The notes: generated from the sequence alone by a model not told the origin. A stretch of DNA of 64,000 nucleotides from Candidatus Bipolaricaulota bacterium (GCA_030550495.1 JAUQPG010000001.1:44512-108511); one strand, 5' to 3'; shown: positions 6,485 to 47,984, counted from the stretch's first letter. Program-made: numbers and translations.

Positions 6485-8105
6485 TATACATATGCTCCTG
6501 CGCCGTGCCTGCCGGCAAAAAGAGCGTCACAATCAGGGCTAACACGGCAACGATCAACCCAACAATAAAGACCCAATGGAGCGCTGTCGCTAAGATCTGT
6601 TGGAGCGCGTCTAAAACGGGAGCCGGCAGCTGCGCCCGCGTCACTGGATTGATCAGCGCGTCGGGGTGGCGCAAAAGATCAGCTAACTTCTCTGCAGACA
6701 GCGAGCTGCCTAGCTCTGGGAGATTATTCACTTGCACCTGCATCTGAGCGCTCAGCACTGCTCCCATAACCGCAACACCGACCGCTCCCCCAATAGAGCG
6801 GAAGAAGACTATCCCCGACGTCGCTATCCCCAATCGATCGCGCGGCACTGAAGTCTGTACAGCAATTAGGAGCGTGATCATCGAGAAGCCCATCCCCGCC
6901 CCCGCGAGCGCTAAATAGCCCATCACTATGAGTCGGCTTGCCTCGGCATTCAGGGTTGCTAGCCCAAGAAAGCCCGCGACCAGCAGCCCAACCCCAAGCA
7001 ACGCTATAGGGCGGTAGCCAACTTTTAGGATCATCCGGCTCCCGATAATAGAGAAGCTGACCCAGCAGAGCATGAACGGCGTGAGCGCCGTACCCGCTTC
7101 GGTCGCCGTCGTCCCAATGACTCCCTGCACAAAGAGCGGGATGAACGAGAGCGAGCCGAACATCGCCATGCCAACAAAGAAGCCGTTCGCCGAAGAGACG
7201 CTAAAAATTCTGTGTCGGAAGAGCGCAAGCGGCACAATGGGTTCTTGCGCACGACGCTCCAAAGCTATAAAAAGCACGAGCAACACAACACAGATACCGA
7301 AGAGTCCCAGCTTCACGAGGGAGTCCAAACTCTGCTGTCCTAGGGCGAGTAGCAGCAACGTTGCCAAAGCTGTGAGCGTGATCGCTCCAGCATAGTCTAT
7401 TGTGACTTTTTTGCGATGGTCGCGCGGCTCGACGAGCGCCAGTCCGATCAAGACTGCTGCCGCGATCCCGAACGGGATATTGATATAAAAGACCCAGCGC
7501 CACGAGAGGTGGTCCGTGATGAAGCCCCCAATGAGCGGGCCGATGATGCTCGCCAGCCCCCAAACCCCACTAAAGAGCCCTTGCATCCGTGCGCGCTTTT
7601 CGAGTGAGTAGATCTCCCCGATGATCGTCATGCCCAGAGGCAGGAGCGCCCCGGCTCCCAAGCCCTGAATGGCGCGAAAGAACACAAGCTGACTCATAGA
7701 CGTCGCTGCCCCAGAGAGCGCCGATCCAATGAGAAAGATCGCGATGCCCAGTAATATAAAGCGCCTGCGCCCGTACAGATCCGAGAGCCGCCCCCACAAC
7801 GGCACAGTTACTGTCGAAGTCAGAATATATGCTGAGAAGACCCAACTATAGATATGCAAGCCTCCTAAGCTGGCGATCACTGTGGGCATAGCTGTCCCGA
7901 CGACAGTTGCTTCTAAAGCGCCAAGGAAGAGCCCAAGCATGACGCCGAGCGTGACGGTCGCCCGCCGGGAGGGCGTCAACGGGATCGGCTCAGCTACAGC
8001 GAGATTAGCTGCAAGGGGCTGCGCCTCCGCACACGCACCCCCAGATGATGAGTCCAGCTTGCTCATAAGGAGTGCGAGTATAGCACAAATGAGCAGGACG
8101 CTCAA
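6465..8105 (-). CDS. MFS transporter, DHA2 (EmrB/QacA-like, 14-TMS) family
   Basis: …LGALEATVVGTAMPTVIASLGG…GRLSDLYGRRRFILLGIAIF…GLGAGALLP… True start is probably an internal Met; the stop lies inside the tRNA-fragment repeat. Confidence 0.8.
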   Translation of the reverse strand: MSVLLICAILALLMSKLDSSSGGACAEAQPLAANLAVAEPIPLTPSRRATVTLGVMLGLFLGALEATVVGTAMPTVIASLGGLHIYSWVFSAYILTSTVTVPLWGRLSDLYGRRRFILLGIAIFLIGSALSGAATSMSQLVFFRAIQGLGAGALLPLGMTIIGEIYSLEKRARMQGLFSGVWGLASIIGPLIGGFITDHLSWRWVFYINIPFGIAAAVLIGLALVEPRDHRKKVTIDYAGAITLTALATLLLLALGQQSLDSLVKLGLFGICVVLLVLFIALERRAQEPIVPLALFRHRIFSVSSANGFFVGMAMFGSLSFIPLFVQGVIGTTATEAGTALTPFMLCWVSFSIIGSRMILKVGYRPIALLGVGLLVAGFLGLATLNAEASRLIVMGYLALAGAGMGFSMITLLIAVQTSVPRDRLGIATSGIVFFRSIGGAVGVAVMGAVLSAQMQVQVNNLPELGSSLSAEKLADLLRHPDALINPVTRAQLPAPVLDALQQILATALHWVFIVGLIVAVLALIVTLFLPAGTAQEHMYSGRTRT

Positions 8106-42701: not shown

Positions 42702-44789
42702 GTGGTTACCCGCGAAGTCTTCTGGAACATCTCGCCCCTTGGTGAACTGATCTTCTATCTCATCGCTCTGATCGCTGTCGTGATCTTTGCCTATGGTATC
42801 TATAGTCACGTGCGCCGCATCCTCCAGGGCAAGAGGGTTTCTTTCACTGTACGCCCGTTATTAGCCAAACTGAGCGCAGCGATAGCGAGCATCGCGGCCA
42901 ATAGAACTATTCTGCGCCATGACGCCCCTGCCGGCATGATGCACTTTTTAATCATGTGGGGCTTCATTGTGCTCTTCATCGGCACGGTCATCGTCACGAT
43001 TGAGTACGATCTGTTTCAAAAGATTTTGGGAATGGAGCACGGCTTTTGGGTCGGCTCGTTCTTCTTGGGGTACGAAGTGATCTTGGACACGCTGGGCGTG
43101 CTCTTTCTCATCGGGTTGATCTGGGCGCTGATACGGCGTTATGGGCTCAGGCCGCCGCAGCTGACGTGGAAGCCGTTAGATTTGGCACTGCCCCTGTGGC
43201 TGTTGTTCATCGGGATCACGGGCTTTCTCGTCGAGGGCTTGCGCCTGGCGGCGACGGCGGCAGAATTAGGGTACGATCCGCGCTGGTCGTGGGCGGGCTT
43301 TCTCGTCTCACAGTGGGTGCAGACTGCTTCCGTTGGGACATTGCGCGCATGGCATTTGGCTCTGTGGTGGATGCATGGGCTTTTAGCGTTGGGCTGGATC
43401 GCGTATCTGCCCTATGCACCGAAAGTAATGCACATTCTTTCAGCTGGGGTCAATCTCTTCTTCCAAGATATGCGTCCGCGCGGACGTTTAGAACTGTTAG
43501 ATGTCGAGGGCGCATTCGAGCGCAATGAAGTCTTGGGCTTTCAGACCCTGAAGGACTTAACGCGCAAAGACTTTTTAGATTTAGCGAGCTGCACCGAGTG
43601 CGGGCGCTGCGAAGCGAACTGTCCCGCGCATCTATCGGGGAAGATCCTCTCACCGCGCGAGATTATTTTAGAGTTACGCACCCACGCAAATGAAGAGTTT
43701 CCTGCATTTGGCAGGCCCAAAGAGCATAAACAGATCATTGGGTACTCGATCAAGCCTGAGGAGATCTGGGCGTGCACAACATGCATGGCCTGTGTCGAAG
43801 TCTGTCCGGTCTTCATCGATCCCTTGAATAAAATTATAGAGCTGCGTCGCAACGAAGTGATGATCCAAGACAAGTACCCTAAGGGGTTCACCGACGTTTT
43901 CAAGGGAATGGATGGGCGCGGCAACCCTTGGGACATGCCCGCGTCTGAACGCTTAGCGTGGATAAAGGGCCTCGACGTACCTATCGTTTCGGCATTAGCT
44001 GCGTCCAACCCCAGTCCAGATTTTGAGTATCTCTTCTTCGTTGGTTGTGCCGCGTCGTTCGATCCCCGGACGCAGAAGATCGCCCGCAGCGTCGTGAAGA
44101 TCCTACAGCACGCTCAGATTAAATTTGCCGTGCTCGGCGAGGAAGAGGGCTGCACCGGCGATCCTGCCCGCCGCATCGGCCATGAATATATCTTTCAGAT
44201 CCTCGCGAAGCAGAACATCGAGATTTTTAACAATTATAACGTCAAGAAGATCTTGACGATCTGCCCGCACTGCTTCAATACTCTCAAGAACGAATATCCT
44301 GCGCTGGGCGGGCAGTACGAAGTCGTCCATCATACGCAGCTCATCGAGCAATTACTGAGAGACGGACGGCTCCAGCTCACCCAAGAGATCCCGGCGACGA
44401 TTACGTATCACGATTCGTGCTATCTGGGGCGCTACAATCGTATCTTCGACGCACCGAGGGCTATCTTACAGAAGATTCCAGGTGTGAAGCTCGTGGAGAT
44501 GGAGCGGCATCGCGAGCGCGGGATGTGCTGCGGCGCGGGTGGCGGGCTGATGTGGCTTGAAGAAGAACCCGGCAAGCGCGTCAACGAACTCAGAGTCCAG
44601 CAAGCGCAAGCTGCGCTTGACGTTCATCTTCGCCGGCCAGCGGCCGGCGAAGCCGTACGGTCTAGGCGAAGCCTGGTGGCGAGCGCCTGTCCCTTCTGCA
44701 TGATCATGCTCGAAGATGGGATTAAGTCAAAGAACGCCGAGTTTGAGAACAAAGATATTGCAGAATTGGTCGCGGAGGCGCTGGGTTAG
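42702..44789 (+). CDS. Membrane-anchored HdrD/DsrK/GlpC-like Fe-S oxidoreductase (N-terminal ~5-TMS His-containing domain, 2x[4Fe-4S], two CCG domains)
   Basis: CTECGRCEANCP…CTTCMACVEVCP ferredoxin motifs. CCG-type Cys clusters (…FFVGCAAS…ILTICPHC… and …YHDSCYLGRYN…GMCCGAGGG…). N-terminal 220 aa hydrophobic with conserved His. Confidence 0.65.
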   Translation: MVTREVFWNISPLGELIFYLIALIAVVIFAYGIYSHVRRILQGKRVSFTVRPLLAKLSAAIASIAANRTILRHDAPAGMMHFLIMWGFIVLFIGTVIVTIEYDLFQKILGMEHGFWVGSFFLGYEVILDTLGVLFLIGLIWALIRRYGLRPPQLTWKPLDLALPLWLLFIGITGFLVEGLRLAATAAELGYDPRWSWAGFLVSQWVQTASVGTLRAWHLALWWMHGLLALGWIAYLPYAPKVMHILSAGVNLFFQDMRPRGRLELLDVEGAFERNEVLGFQTLKDLTRKDFLDLASCTECGRCEANCPAHLSGKILSPREIILELRTHANEEFPAFGRPKEHKQIIGYSIKPEEIWACTTCMACVEVCPVFIDPLNKIIELRRNEVMIQDKYPKGFTDVFKGMDGRGNPWDMPASERLAWIKGLDVPIVSALAASNPSPDFEYLFFVGCAASFDPRTQKIARSVVKILQHAQIKFAVLGEEEGCTGDPARRIGHEYIFQILAKQNIEIFNNYNVKKILTICPHCFNTLKNEYPALGGQYEVVHHTQLIEQLLRDGRLQLTQEIPATITYHDSCYLGRYNRIFDAPRAILQKIPGVKLVEMERHRERGMCCGAGGGLMWLEEEPGKRVNELRVQQAQAALDVHLRRPAAGEAVRSRRSLVASACPFCMIMLEDGIKSKNAEFENKDIAELVAEALG

Positions 44790-47173
44790 ATCCACACTCC
44801 TGGGATCGTCCGCCCGCAATTGGGGCAGTGCCCATCGCGAAGTCTGTTTTGTAGAATCGCAAACCCATAACGCTCGATGAGCAGCGCCCCACACCCTGGA
44901 CAGTATGTGTTCTCATAGCGCCCGGTCATGCCAGGGAGATTGCCCGTGTAGACGAAGTGCAGCCCCGCGTCGTAGCCGATCTGCGCCGCACGGATGAGCG
45001 TCTCTGCCGGAGTATTGTCCGAATCGGTCATCTTGTAGTCTTTATGAAACGCTGTGACGTGCCATGGGATATCCGGGGAGATCGAGACTAAAAACTTCGC
45101 GATCTGTCTTAGCTCGTCGTCGGAATCGTTGAAGCCCGGAACGACAAGCGTCACGATCTCCAGCCAAAAGCCCAGCTCGTGCACCATCGCAATGCCGTCG
45201 AGGACTTTCGATAAGACCGCTCCCAGCACACGATAATTTTTATCTTGAAAAGACTTTAGGTCTATCTTGTAGCAATCGAGATGCGGGCGCAGATACTGTA
45301 AAACTTCACGGGTCGCGTTGCCGTTGGAGACATAGCCCGTGAGCAACCCGAGCTTTTTGGCTTCTTTGAAGACTGCTACGGCCCACTCTGAGGTGATCAA
45401 GGGCTCGTTATATGAGCTGATGACGGCGCGCGCGCCGTAGCGCTGAGCTAGACTGACAAGCTCTTCTGGCGTGACGTCGTGAGGAAGTGCGCCGGCGCTT
45501 GTGTCGCGCAAGGTCTGCGAGATCTCCCAGTTTTGGCAGTTTTTCACAAGGCAGAAACCCGCTAGATAGCTGTGAGTTGTGTCGTCTATCTCTAGGTTAT
45601 AAACCGGCCCCTGATATGGTTCACGGCATATAGAGCGGATTGGAACCAGATAATAATCAGACGTCTCGCGATAGCGCCGCGGGACGGTCTTGTCCTTGTA
45701 CCAGACGATAGTATATTGCTCCGCGGCCTGGTACACGTGCCGATCCTCAATTTGCTTTGTCTGTGGCTGTACATTGATATAGAGTGAGGGAAGATTCCCT
45801 AGTTGGAGGACAAGCCATGCGACTCCATAAGCCAGAGCACGGGATTTCGTCGTGACCGTTATCTTGCCGTTTTCGTAGCAATGCCCATCTCCGTGGGTAT
45901 AAGCTTCCAGAAAGGCTTGGATAATTGACGGCGGAGCCTTAAAGATGACCTCTGGAACTCGCTTTTCCTGCGACTTCGCGCCGCAGAGCCGCTCAAAGAG
46001 CCAAGCTACTGATGCTTTGGTGACCTCCACGGCGAGGGTGGTGCGACGGCGAACGCGTCGAGCTGTCACGTCGAAGAGTTCTTGGAGCAGGGTACAGATC
46101 TCGTTAGCTAGTCTGTGTTCTTGCGGCCCAAGGGCGAAGATGAGTGTGCGGCTGTTAGGGCGCCCCTTCTCGAGGACTACGCAGCCTTCGGCGCAATAAT
46201 ACCCGAGGAGTCGAGCGAGGCGTTCCTCCACGGGGAGATAGAGAGGGACTCCAGGTCTATGCTCTTTCAAGAAGCGAACTCGGCCGCCTTCTATTACGAG
46301 GCGCTGCCTGCGCTCTTCTTGCCACAGCCCGCGATAGACTTTACTGCGCACGTGCCGTATGTAGGATGGGTCCTTACCTAAAGCTTGTCCCAGTTCTCGT
46401 GAGCTTACTCCTTCCTGGGTAGCGACCATGAGCCATTCGACTTGATGCGGCGCCAATTTGTGAGGGATCTTATAGGAGGGGTGCAACTCTTCTAAGAGAG
46501 CGGACACGTCCAACGTTACTGATGTGGAGCAGGTAAAGCGCTTTGGGATGACTAAGAAATGGTGGGGTGTGAGTTCTTCAGCTCTTACGATCTCGATAGG
46601 GCCCCCTTCAGGGTTCGTGGTGGCGTAGAGACGATGGTCGGGAGTGCAGCGAAGCGCTGGGAGGTAATAAGGCTTAATAGTGATCAGCTCGCCTTCATAG
46701 TAATGCTTGAAGGCGGCCTGCACAGGGCGAAGCTCGCCAGCCTCCGTGACCACCTGGAGCTGGGGACGTGAAGCTTCTCCGTCGGGGAGCATTAGTCTCT
46801 CTTCTCCCAAACAGAAAATCTCTTCAATAGAGAGGACTCCTCGCTCGGTCGTCACAGGCGTTTCTGGGGAGAAGCAGTATGGGCAATGCAGATCGCATCC
46901 GAGCATCCCAAATGTGAGTGTGCGTGCGCCAGGCAACACGTGATAGAACGGCTTTTTCTCGATGGGGTCCAACCCCAACGAGCTGACATACCCCCAGGGC
47001 ACGTAGAGTTTTCCGTCTCTATTGAAGCGCACCTGGCAGATACCCCGTTTCCCCTCGAAGATCACGCAGCGATGAGCGCACGCATAGCAGCGCACTCTCT
47101 TATCGTCGAGCTTCTCGTAGAGCTCGCCCTCGCGCGTACGCGCATCGAGCAGCTCTGCAAGCGTCGCGATCAT
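44786..47173 (-). CDS. AmmeMemoRadiSam-system radical SAM enzyme interrupted by a 446-aa intein
   Basis: Extein is …RCYACAHRCVI…GICQVRFN…GCDLHCPY|…|CQNWEISQT… plus the C-terminal half (…LPGMTGRYENTYCPGCGALLIE…). Start ATG 47173 with upstream GAGGGG. Confidence 0.75.
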   Translation of the reverse strand: MIATLAELLDARTREGELYEKLDDKRVRCYACAHRCVIFEGKRGICQVRFNRDGKLYVPWGYVSSLGLDPIEKKPFYHVLPGARTLTFGMLGCDLHCPYCFSPETPVTTERGVLSIEEIFCLGEERLMLPDGEASRPQLQVVTEAGELRPVQAAFKHYYEGELITIKPYYLPALRCTPDHRLYATTNPEGGPIEIVRAEELTPHHFLVIPKRFTCSTSVTLDVSALLEELHPSYKIPHKLAPHQVEWLMVATQEGVSSRELGQALGKDPSYIRHVRSKVYRGLWQEERRQRLVIEGGRVRFLKEHRPGVPLYLPVEERLARLLGYYCAEGCVVLEKGRPNSRTLIFALGPQEHRLANEICTLLQELFDVTARRVRRRTTLAVEVTKASVAWLFERLCGAKSQEKRVPEVIFKAPPSIIQAFLEAYTHGDGHCYENGKITVTTKSRALAYGVAWLVLQLGNLPSLYINVQPQTKQIEDRHVYQAAEQYTIVWYKDKTVPRRYRETSDYYLVPIRSICREPYQGPVYNLEIDDTTHSYLAGFCLVKNCQNWEISQTLRDTSAGALPHDVTPEELVSLAQRYGARAVISSYNEPLITSEWAVAVFKEAKKLGLLTGYVSNGNATREVLQYLRPHLDCYKIDLKSFQDKNYRVLGAVLSKVLDGIAMVHELGFWLEIVTLVVPGFNDSDDELRQIAKFLVSISPDIPWHVTAFHKDYKMTDSDNTPAETLIRAAQIGYDAGLHFVYTGNLPGMTGRYENTYCPGCGALLIERYGFAILQNRLRDGHCPNCGRTIPGVWI
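45539..46876 (-). other. Intein with LAGLIDADG homing-endonuclease domain, inserted in the CxxxCxxC motif of the radical SAM gene
   Basis: Begins Cys1 (CFSPETPVTTERG = block A). Block B TPDH. Two LAGLIDADG-like motifs (LARLLGYYCAEGCV; IIQAFLEAYTHGDGH). Blocks F/G VYNLEIDDTTHSYLAGFCLVKN, then extein Cys+1. Confidence 0.7.
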
Positions 47174-47177
47174 CGAG

Positions 47178-47984
47178 TTACCCCTCATAGAACGCGTAGC
47201 ACCCATAGCCCACAACTCGGAATCTATCCCCCGCTGTATCCCCGGAATTGCGATAGTCCAAGAGCTTCGCTTTCCATCCGTGATCACGAGCAATCTGCAT
47301 CAGTGTCAGGATCGCGGTCTTCCCGCAGGCTTCGACGCGCTCCTCCATCAACGCAAAATCGAAATTTTCAATGGCTCGGTGGGCTAGAGCGTCGCGCCCT
47401 ACGGCTTCCTCGTAGGGATAATAGTGGCTCAGATCCGAGCTGACAATAATGAGATCTATGTCTTCTAGATATGGCGCGAGTGTTCGTGCTAGATTGCGAT
47501 AGTCGCATTCGCCCGTCAAGATGGGGAAGATCTCACAGTTGGGAAGCACAGTCTGCACGAAGGGGAGCTGCACTTCTAAAGAATGCTCTGGAGCATGAGC
47601 GTTGGGATTATTCTGGAGATCGCCGCGCTCGAGGGCGCGAGCGATCAAGCCTTTGGCGCACTGTACCAAGCCGAGCGGGGTCTGCCAGGCGTCACAGTCT
47701 ACAATTGCCGCGCCGACGAAGTAGACGTAGTGTGCCGGGCCAAGAAGAAGCACTCTTAACTGAGAACTGTCAAACTTGGAACTGTAAACTGTTTTGTAGC
47801 CCGTTGCCGCCACCGGCCCAGAGTAGACATACCCAGCGTGGGGCACGATCAGCCCGCGCAGTCTGCCTCCAAGTGTCTTGGGCTGTGCTTGAGCAAGCAA
47901 AGTCTCGACGGTCTTGCGCAAGCGCTCCGAGCTTGCAGGATAGAAGCTTCCTGCGACGGCTGCAGGCCGAATGCGCTCCATCAC
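47178..47984 (-). CDS. Memo-like protein (AmmeMemoRadiSam system protein B)
   Basis: MMERIRPAAVAGSFYPA…IVPHAGYVYSGPVAA… typical of the MEMO1/DUF52 family. Stop lies 4 nt upstream of the radical SAM start. Confidence 0.75.
   Translation of the reverse strand: MMERIRPAAVAGSFYPASSERLRKTVETLLAQAQPKTLGGRLRGLIVPHAGYVYSGPVAATGYKTVYSSKFDSSQLRVLLLGPAHYVYFVGAAIVDCDAWQTPLGLVQCAKGLIARALERGDLQNNPNAHAPEHSLEVQLPFVQTVLPNCEIFPILTGECDYRNLARTLAPYLEDIDLIIVSSDLSHYYPYEEAVGRDALAHRAIENFDFALMEERVEACGKTAILTLMQIARDHGWKAKLLDYRNSGDTAGDRFRVVGYGCYAFYEG

Follow-up and report, generated by a model that had tools for sequence, protein, structure and literature searches.

A predicted LAGLIDADG-type intein within the CxxxCxxC motif of an AmmeMemoRadiSam-system radical SAM enzyme from Candidatus Bipolaricaulota

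Why does a radical SAM enzyme gene of a Candidatus Bipolaricaulota bacterium encode a protein of doubled length, and how would its interrupted cluster motif become whole? The gene belongs to the AmmeMemoRadiSam system and lies on the minus strand of the window, i.e., the whole stretch of 64,000 nucleotides (nt) analysed here (GCA_030550495.1, JAUQPG010000001.1:44512-108511). We suggest, with a probability of roughly 0.88, that positions 45539-46876 encode a canonical class-1 intein with a LAGLIDADG homing endonuclease and a helix-turn-helix (HTH)-like module, placed in frame between Cys 2 and Cys 3 of the CxxxCxxC motif. An earlier note on this DNA had proposed an intein of 446 amino acids (aa) at these minus-strand positions, and both the coordinates and the length proved to be exact. 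From the anatomy of the insert, its conservation and its polymorphism we infer that splicing and DNA cleavage would actually occur.

The insert and the cluster motif of its host

The features needed for the argument are listed below, with coordinates of the window.

44789..47173, minus strand: precursor gene, AmmeMemoRadiSam-system radical SAM enzyme with the predicted intein, 795 aa, 90.2 kDa (TIGR04337)
44786-44788, minus strand: stop codon of the precursor gene
46877..47173, minus strand: N-extein, 99 aa, ending in GCDLHCPY, with Cys-7 and Cys-3, the first two Cys residues of the motif
45539..46876, minus strand: predicted intein of class-1 type with Cys1 and C-terminal Asn, 446 aa, 51.0 kDa (Pfam and NCBIfam matches above cut-off, single alignment gap, DNA break against the intein-free locus L001, fold)
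46838..46876, minus strand: block A CFSPETPVTTERG including the Cys1 nucleophile (C1, T6, T10 and G13 invariant; TIGR01445)
46625..46651, minus strand: block B RCTPDHRLY with T-x-x-H (C77, T78, P79, D80 and H81 invariant in alignment A3)
46337..46405, minus strand: HTH-like segment SSRELGQALGKDPSYIRHVRSKV (weak HTH_38 match, strong conservation, model helices)
46178..46219, minus strand: LAGLIDADG motif 1 LARLLGYYCAEGCV (LLGYYCAEG) with the predicted catalytic Glu230 (PF14528; G225, Y227, C228, E230 and G231 invariant)
45953..45967, minus strand: endonuclease K-x-V-P motif EKRVP (K305 and P308 invariant; aligns to KRIP of PI-PkoII)
45881..45925, minus strand: LAGLIDADG motif 2 IIQAFLEAYTHGDGH (AYTHGDG) with the predicted catalytic Asp330 (G329, D330 and G331 invariant)
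45539..45604, minus strand: blocks F and G, VYNLEIDDTTHSYLA / GFCLVKN, with His435, penultimate Lys445 and terminal Asn446 (conservation in 120 homologues)
44789..45538, minus strand: C-extein, 250 aa, starting with CQNWEIS; the Cys+1 codon is at 45536-45538
47181..47984, minus strand: upstream operon partner, AmmeMemoRadiSam system protein B, Memo-like (TIGR04336, 253 bits; cut-off 26)

The junctions of the insert read ...GMLGCDLHCPY / C...N / CQNWEISQ, the C-terminal side being ...LVKN / CQNW, and it is only after in-silico splicing that the CxxxCxxC motif of the host becomes contiguous. The precursor matches TIGR04337 (cut-off 220 bits) with 282.6 bits in two stretches; the 349-aa protein spliced in silico gives 301.3 bits in one stretch, with residues 18-348 aligned to profile positions 3-333, and its predicted junction peptide is ...GCDLHCPYCQNWEISQTLR. 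Natural intein-free homologues (P0121-P0126) have 348-356 aa, are 84-91% identical to the spliced sequence and carry the same GCDLHCPYCQNWEIS; P0121 and P0122 (348-349 aa) reach 90-91% identity. Alignment to these proteins leaves one gap, exactly between CDLHCPY and CQNWEIS, which is where the earlier note had expected it; the restoration of the cluster motif by excision, also claimed there, is supported by the single TIGR04337 stretch and by the intein-free relatives.

The spliced GCDLHCPYCQN aligns with GCLMRCLYCHN of the Escherichia coli pyruvate formate-lyase activating enzyme (PFL-AE), in which the radical SAM [4Fe-4S] cluster is held by Cys29, Cys33 and Cys36. Since Cys+1 falls on Cys36, the +1 nucleophile would itself be the third cluster ligand, in agreement with the earlier proposal. 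It is worth noting that the precursor still reads CDLHCPYC, with the intein Cys1 in the third motif position, and that the Hint fold holds the two splice junctions side by side; some binding of metal by the precursor thiols, or disulfide formation, can therefore be imagined. It is plausible that the host enzyme does not bind its cluster before splicing.

The insert, which runs from CFSPETPV to CLVKN, contains all the motifs quoted for it before: CFSPETPVTTERG at aa 1-13, TPDH at aa 78-81, LARLLGYYCAEGCV at aa 220-233, IIQAFLEAYTHGDGH at aa 318-332 and VYNLEIDDTTHSYLAGFCLVKN at aa 425-446. A comparison with intein/Hint and LAGLIDADG profiles had been recommended, and three models exceeded their curated cut-offs, namely LAGLIDADG_3 (PF14528; 48.2 bits, cut-off 22.5), Intein_splicing (PF14890; 37.5 bits with the insert scanned alone, cut-off 35.8) and TIGR01445 (intein_Nterm; 35.1 bits, cut-off 24.5), the last covering intein residues 1-84. 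The insert also aligns to the intein portions of models for intein-containing V-ATPase, RNR, IF-2, Pol II and Tes. When solved structures were searched with phmmer, PI-PkoII was matched with E = 1.7e-24 over both LAGLIDADG motifs and the KxIP motif, and Thermococcus/Pyrococcus VMA inteins were matched as well. Chance similarity can by no means account for these scores. Motif 1 aligns to LAKLLGYYVSEG of PI-PkoII and motif 2 to its FLEGYFIGDG.

An AlphaFold (AF2) model of the whole precursor was built from 59 homologues, with a mean predicted local distance difference test (pLDDT) value of 86.9. Its best Foldseek matches in PDB were 7qsu (E = 4.6e-26, TMt 0.79), 2cw7, 7qss, 7qst, 1vde (PI-SceI) and 1dq3 (PI-PfuI), the mini-inteins 4e2u and 6rpp were also among the matches, and the extein part matched the PFL-activase 3c8f (TMt 0.64). 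The intein matches agree with a Hint fold whose two terminal halves make up a single domain. The model places three helices at precursor residues 242-280, after the N-terminal splicing lobe and before the nuclease, with the conserved stretch LGKDPSYIRHVRSKV. The HTH_38 match in this segment is weak (E = 0.03, below the cut-off), and the segment is lost together with the endonuclease in the two mini-inteins P0167 and P0229. The three-helix insert is probably an extra DNA-recognition module.

Based on this anatomy, the following pathway can be proposed for maturation. Translation would give a 90-kDa precursor, in which Cys1 would attack the carbonyl of Tyr(-1) in an N-S acyl shift, and trans-thioesterification would then move the N-extein to Cys+1. 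Cyclisation of Asn446 would free the 51-kDa intein without a penultimate His, probably assisted by the invariant block-F His435, and an S-N shift would restore a normal peptide bond. The product would be a 39-kDa enzyme with a contiguous CDLHCPYC, in which Cys+1 would now serve as the third iron-sulfur ligand.

The size of the precursor depends on the start codon. The earlier note had described an 835-aa open reading frame (ORF), which does exist on the minus strand at 44786..47293 and holds the insert as residues 140-585; this is the longest possible reading and opens at TTG. Its size has to be corrected, the likely start being the ATG at 47173. The TTG start was rejected, as it overlaps the Memo gene, whereas the ATG has a ribosome-binding site and agrees with the database gene call: it follows the Memo stop after 4 nt and is preceded by GAGGGG at a distance of 8 nt, and the database protein P0001 (795 aa, differing from the window in 3 residues) is called from it. 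The 5′ part of the 835-aa reading (47174-47293) shares its sequence with the 3′ end of the Memo-like gene. With the ATG as start, the calculated masses are 90.2 kDa for the precursor (795 aa), 51.0 kDa for the intein (446 aa) and 39.2 kDa for the spliced enzyme (349 aa), the last replacing the ~44 kDa given before.

Conservation, alleles and mobility

At least 120 full-length relatives of ~795-870 aa were retrieved by a protein search; they are 53-68% identical to the window protein, and nearly all have the same three Pfam domains. The 120 sequences were aligned by mafft with the fast setting. It should be noted that the 120 top matches of a search with the spliced sequence omit intein-bearing relatives, so that they are not a fair sample of intein frequency. 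Cys-7, Cys-3, Cys1, the block-F His (H-11), the terminal Asn and Cys+1 are present in 120/120 homologues, and the intein has 445-446 aa in 94 of them. Both LAGLIDADG acidic residues (E230 and D330) are invariant in 59 aligned homologues, and so are TPDH of block B, GDG and the lysine of the KxVP motif (K305). Together, the invariant residues and the uniform length indicate that the splicing function and the nuclease function are both under purifying selection.

Four observations weigh against a canonical intein. The Intein_splicing model reaches 35.1 bits in the full protein, just under the cut-off of 35.8, and passes solely when the insert is scanned alone. The penultimate His, the usual helper of Asn cyclisation, is replaced by Lys445 and occurs in 2/120 homologues. 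Block F reads VYN at window positions 45596-45604, with Asn in 118/120 homologues, whereas class-1 inteins usually have Asp here (VYD...). Finally, the model is unreliable around the cluster loop, where pLDDT drops under 50 (residues 92-96 and 547-562), so that the geometry of the junctions cannot be judged from it.

The penultimate residue deserves a closer look. The earlier note had called the Lys atypical, and this stands in so far as residue 445 is Lys and not His; as an oddity of this particular copy it does not, since Ser, Lys, Ala and Gly are the family norm (58 Ser, 38 Lys, 16 Ala, 5 Gly, 2 His and 1 Asn among the 120). The missing His is thus a property of the whole family, and, together with the block-F Asn, it suggests that Asn cyclisation relies on a somewhat unusual set of catalytic residues. 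The same lack of His could be taken as a sign that the insert is a non-splicing domain derived from a Hint/endonuclease protein or a disabling insertion, which would make the locus a pseudogene or a two-domain protein of other function. However, such a domain would split an indispensable cluster motif, yet the exteins are strongly conserved (mean identity 66% among the homologues, above the TIGR04337 cut-off), the nucleophiles are invariant in all 120 homologues and the frame is intact across hundreds of independent assemblies. In addition, inteins without a penultimate His are known to splice. We consider a non-splicing insert very improbable.

Homologues of the same length might also mean that the segment is an ordinary conserved domain of ~800-aa proteins, which the earlier note had named as the case that would speak against an intein. 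Such homologues do exist, but all of them retain the splice-junction residues and they coexist with intein-free and mini-intein alleles. The ordinary-domain reading was rejected on two grounds, the invariance of the junction nucleophiles and the occurrence of empty and mini alleles among the closest relatives.

Four related loci allow alleles to be compared. L001 has an intein-free gene and L002-L004 carry a 453-aa intein. The flanking DNA of L001 and L002 is 97.2-97.8% identical, with a clean 1359-nt indel at the CCGTAC/TGTCAA junction. The DNA of L001 runs uninterrupted through the site as TGCCCGTAC / TGTCAAAAT, and the intein-less site at 6262-6321 of L001 reads ATGCTCGGCTGTGATCTACACTGCCCGTAC / TGTCAAAATTGGGAGATCTCG. 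The window DNA is 76-82% identical to L001, and the match is broken precisely at 45539..46876. The protein of L002 (P0006) has an extein 91% identical to that of the window and an intein only 43% identical, while the inteins closest to that of the window (60-63%) sit in exteins of 72-77% identity. Over 119 homologues, extein and intein identity are uncorrelated (r = 0.02).

Shortened alleles occur at the same site. Two proteins, P0167 (533 aa, Bipolaricaulia) and P0229 (528 aa, Anaerolineae), carry mini-inteins from which the HTH and LAGLIDADG region is cleanly missing (alignment A2). After P0001, the nearest relative of the window intein is P0167 in its N-terminal splicing lobe (65% identity over 130 aa). 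As regards base composition, the GC content at third codon positions (GC3) is 0.585 in the intein vs. 0.696 in the extein, and 0.570 vs. 0.704 for L002; a foreign composition was not visible in overall GC, where the intein (0.545) is near the extein (0.564) and the window (0.566), the clear contrast being confined to GC3.

Within 18 nt on either side of the junction, L001 and L002 differ at 10 of 36 nt, against a background of ~2.5%. This clustering is reminiscent of a co-conversion tract or of target-site immunity, and is suggestive only. The sites compared were L001:6262-6321 and L002:6262-6291 plus 7651-7680, and one of the changes, E-I to M-L, lies directly downstream. The gene has further small groups of L001/L002 differences away from this site.

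Could the intein nevertheless be a vertically inherited, immobile relic that still splices with a dead endonuclease and no homing? Its uniform length (445-446 aa in most homologues) would fit, and the splicing residues must stay whatever the mobility. On the other hand, the LAGLIDADG acids, GDG and the KxVP Lys are invariant among inteins only 41-63% identical to that of the window, which argues for purifying selection on the nuclease. The presence/absence polymorphism between loci ~97% identical in DNA, the different intein lineages within near-identical exteins, the lack of correlation between extein and intein divergence and the co-conversion-like differences at most 18 nt from the junction between L001 and L002 also speak against it, and we regard a relic as improbable. 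The alleles are better read as an intein that is, or recently was, mobile, in which the empty site, invasion, decay to a mini-intein and loss would be stages of the classical homing cycle. In such a cycle, the free intein would act as a homing endonuclease, cutting intein-less alleles at the CPY/CQN-coding site, after which it would be copied in by repair. Homing into empty alleles is proposed as the reason for the patchy distribution and for the turnover of intein lineages. The natural series of intein-free, full-length, mini-intein and divergent-lineage alleles in loci near-identical in DNA or extein adds to the interest of the system.

Distribution, radical SAM hosts and gene neighbourhood

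To describe the distribution, one genome per GTDB species was scanned with an alignment of 13 of these inteins as the query. The allele was found in at least 164 species representatives from about eight phyla. The phylum names and the identity maximum given here come from the best 80 of the 164 loci. These belong to Chloroflexota (Anaerolineae, Chloroflexia, Thermoflexales, Caldilineales), Acidobacteriota (Blastocatellia, Pyrinomonadaceae), Rokubacteria/Methylomirabilota, Planctomycetales, Latescibacterota, Armatimonadota, Bipolaricaulota and a Syntrophothermus metagenome-assembled genome, and the 80 reach at most 51% identity to the window intein. A cultured organism is represented, within Armatimonadota, by Ca. 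Fervidibacter sacchari PD1 (L083; complete genome NZ_CP130454), in which the intein at ~3,785,951-3,787,309 is 42% identical. The window extein is ~88% identical to a Ca. Acetithermum autotrophicum UniRef protein (P0007) and 91% identical to P0006, which makes a source within Bipolaricaulota/Acetothermia probable. No further intein was found in the window when a profile from alignment A3 was run against all six-frame ORFs of at least 80 aa; only that at 45539-46876 was recovered.

When the intein was compared exhaustively with 1.84 billion cluster representatives by phmmer, 73 clusters matched at E <= 1e-30 and 1144 at E <= 1e-10, and the complete CxxxCxx/C…N/C architecture was recognised in 35 proteins among the top 150 cluster representatives. 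Based on NCBIfam annotation, the hosts examined in this wider set (P0245-P0381) include other AmmeMemoRadiSam clades, B12-binding HpnJ/BchE-like proteins, one SPASM-type maturase-like protein and one member of the PA0069/Rv2578c family. The inteins of the other radical SAM hosts are 26-47% identical to that of the window, and the penultimate residues in the wider set are mostly non-His. The occupation of the same site in several families suggests an insertion hotspot across the superfamily. P0272, an AmmeMemoRadiSam-type protein of 946 aa, carries two inteins in one motif, CNWL/C(mini-intein)...HN/CRY/C(LAGLIDADG intein)...AN/CQNF, so that both the second and the third cluster Cys serve as +1 residues, one for each intein.

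The related inteins at the same site in other families and the double intein of P0272 hint at a broader idea, namely that the site before the third Cys is a hotspot superfamily-wide and that splicing there is chemically coupled to the thiol/iron-sulfur state of the cell. In the pseudo-motif CDLHCPY-C1 the nucleophile would stand in for the third ligand, with Cys+1 beside it; a disulfide between Cys-3 and Cys1 or between Cys1 and Cys+1, Zn2+ or an Fe-S cluster would hold the precursor, and the active enzyme would be set free once the cell is reducing and replete in clusters. We regard this general coupling as doubtful.

The known host range of inteins would be broadened by one that is widespread in bacteria and sits in a radical SAM enzyme of metabolism. 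Such proteins are already abundant in public sequence databases, where they bear uninformative names, either 'radical SAM protein' or the name of the pyruvate formate lyase activating enzyme, and the doubled length can mislead automated annotation. The inteins are predicted to splice without a penultimate His, between Tyr(-1) and Cys+1, and may suit protein engineering.

As regards the neighbourhood, the GAGGGG before the ATG at 47173 indicates an operon with tight coupling. Protein B lies directly upstream of the radical SAM gene in the window, and the same order is found in L001-L004. The whole order of fumarase, Memo-like protein B, radical SAM enzyme, CCG-domain Fe-S protein and MutY-like protein is syntenic in the window and in these four loci. 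AmmeMemoRadiSam protein A (AMMECR1-like) was not adjacent in the window locus or in the related loci, the rest of the window not being searched for it. The radical SAM gene and the convergent gene of the CCG-domain Fe-S protein (42702-44789, plus strand) overlap at their stop codons (window positions 44786-44789). Between the corresponding genes of L001 (7082-7611) there are two extra small genes, a 93-aa ORF and a HicA-toxin-like ORF, and in L002-L004 the 93-aa ORF alone takes their place.

Comparison with known systems

The closest parallel in the literature is the intein of Pyrococcus abyssi (Pab) MoaA, which is also a radical SAM protein. According to two reviews (PMC3922620, PMC10663303), both citing Callahan et al. 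2011, a native disulfide between Cys-3 and Cys1 blocks splicing of this intein until it is reduced, and the disulfide is interpreted as protection for an O2-labile enzyme. A disulfide between Cys1 and Cys+1 is described for the Pab PolII intein in PMC3922620. Like the MoaA intein, that of the window has a radical SAM host, Cys1 and an N-extein Cys at position -3 (CPY/C, a CxxC arrangement); here the C(-3)-x-x-C1 arrangement results from insertion before the third Cys of CxxxCxxC. Unlike archaeal MoaA, the window host is bacterial and AmmeMemoRadiSam/PFL-activase-like. The MoaA intein presumably also sits before the third Cys of CxxxCxxC, and the two inteins may be homologues at the same site.

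These precedents raise the question of whether the window intein might be a redox-gated maturation switch and not a mere parasite. An oxidising Cys-3/Cys1 (or Cys1/Cys+1) disulfide would block the first splicing step, and the oxygen-labile enzyme would be completed only in a reducing cell, which would add to the reading as a class-1 intein without replacing it. Cys+1 and Cys-3 being two of the three iron-sulfur ligands, maturation, thiol redox and cluster assembly would be physically entangled. The presence of Cys-3 and Cys1 in 120/120 homologues, both Pab disulfides and the retention of the allele with intact junctions in many lineages are in line with such a switch. However, Cys-3 would be invariant anyway as a cluster ligand, and its conservation is therefore no evidence for a redox trap. 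The patchy distribution, the replacement of lineages and the 90-91% identical intein-free alleles fit a selfish element, the host thriving without the intein. We hold the switch as a tentative possibility, clearly short of even odds, although a Cys-3/Cys1 trap as in MoaA is the most interesting question that this intein raises. With at least 164 species, including the cultured Ca. Fervidibacter sacchari PD1, the family would allow conditional protein splicing to be studied in a large number of natural variants instead of in MoaA alone.

According to Novikova et al. 2016 (PMC4760082), inteins reside mostly in proteins of replication, repair and nucleotide metabolism, and radical SAM hosts are absent from the main text of that survey. 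A literature search found no description of an intein in an AmmeMemoRadiSam enzyme, and one on an intein in the tetraether synthase Tes gave nothing relevant. The AmmeMemoRadiSam intein is apparently a new, undescribed case within the known intein endonucleases of radical SAM enzymes.

In NCBIfam, exception models exist for two kinds of intein-containing radical SAM proteins, the tetraether lipid synthase Tes (NF045703) and the Rv2578c family (NF038136), and none was found for an intein-bearing AmmeMemoRadiSam enzyme. Residues 51-440 of the window intein align to positions 218-603 of NF045703, i.e., to its intein part (E = 2.4e-9). Two proteins of the wider set align to this model across the N-junction (P0251, residues 139-603 to positions 145-611; P0261, residues 155-661 to positions 148-657), which suggests the same insertion point. 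The window protein itself stands outside NF045703 and NF038136, since the host families differ and its score is far under the cut-offs (36 vs. 1700 bits).

With E. coli PFL-AE (3c8f/3cb8/8fo0), the extein shares the radical SAM core at the fold similarity given above. PFL-AE has no intein, whereas the window enzyme belongs to TIGR04337 and has extra N- and C-terminal Cys-rich segments with CxxC pairs. As in PI-PkoII (2cw7), TliVMA/PhoVMA (7qss-7qsu), PI-SceI (1vde) and PI-PfuI (1dq3), the Hint domain of the window intein is split by a two-motif LAGLIDADG nuclease with an accessory DNA-binding module. It differs from the solved archaeal-type intein endonucleases in sequence (13-20% identity over the fold alignment) and in host, theirs being DNA polymerase and V-ATPase, and what sets it apart from them is the three-helix HTH-like form of its accessory module and its non-His penultimate residue.

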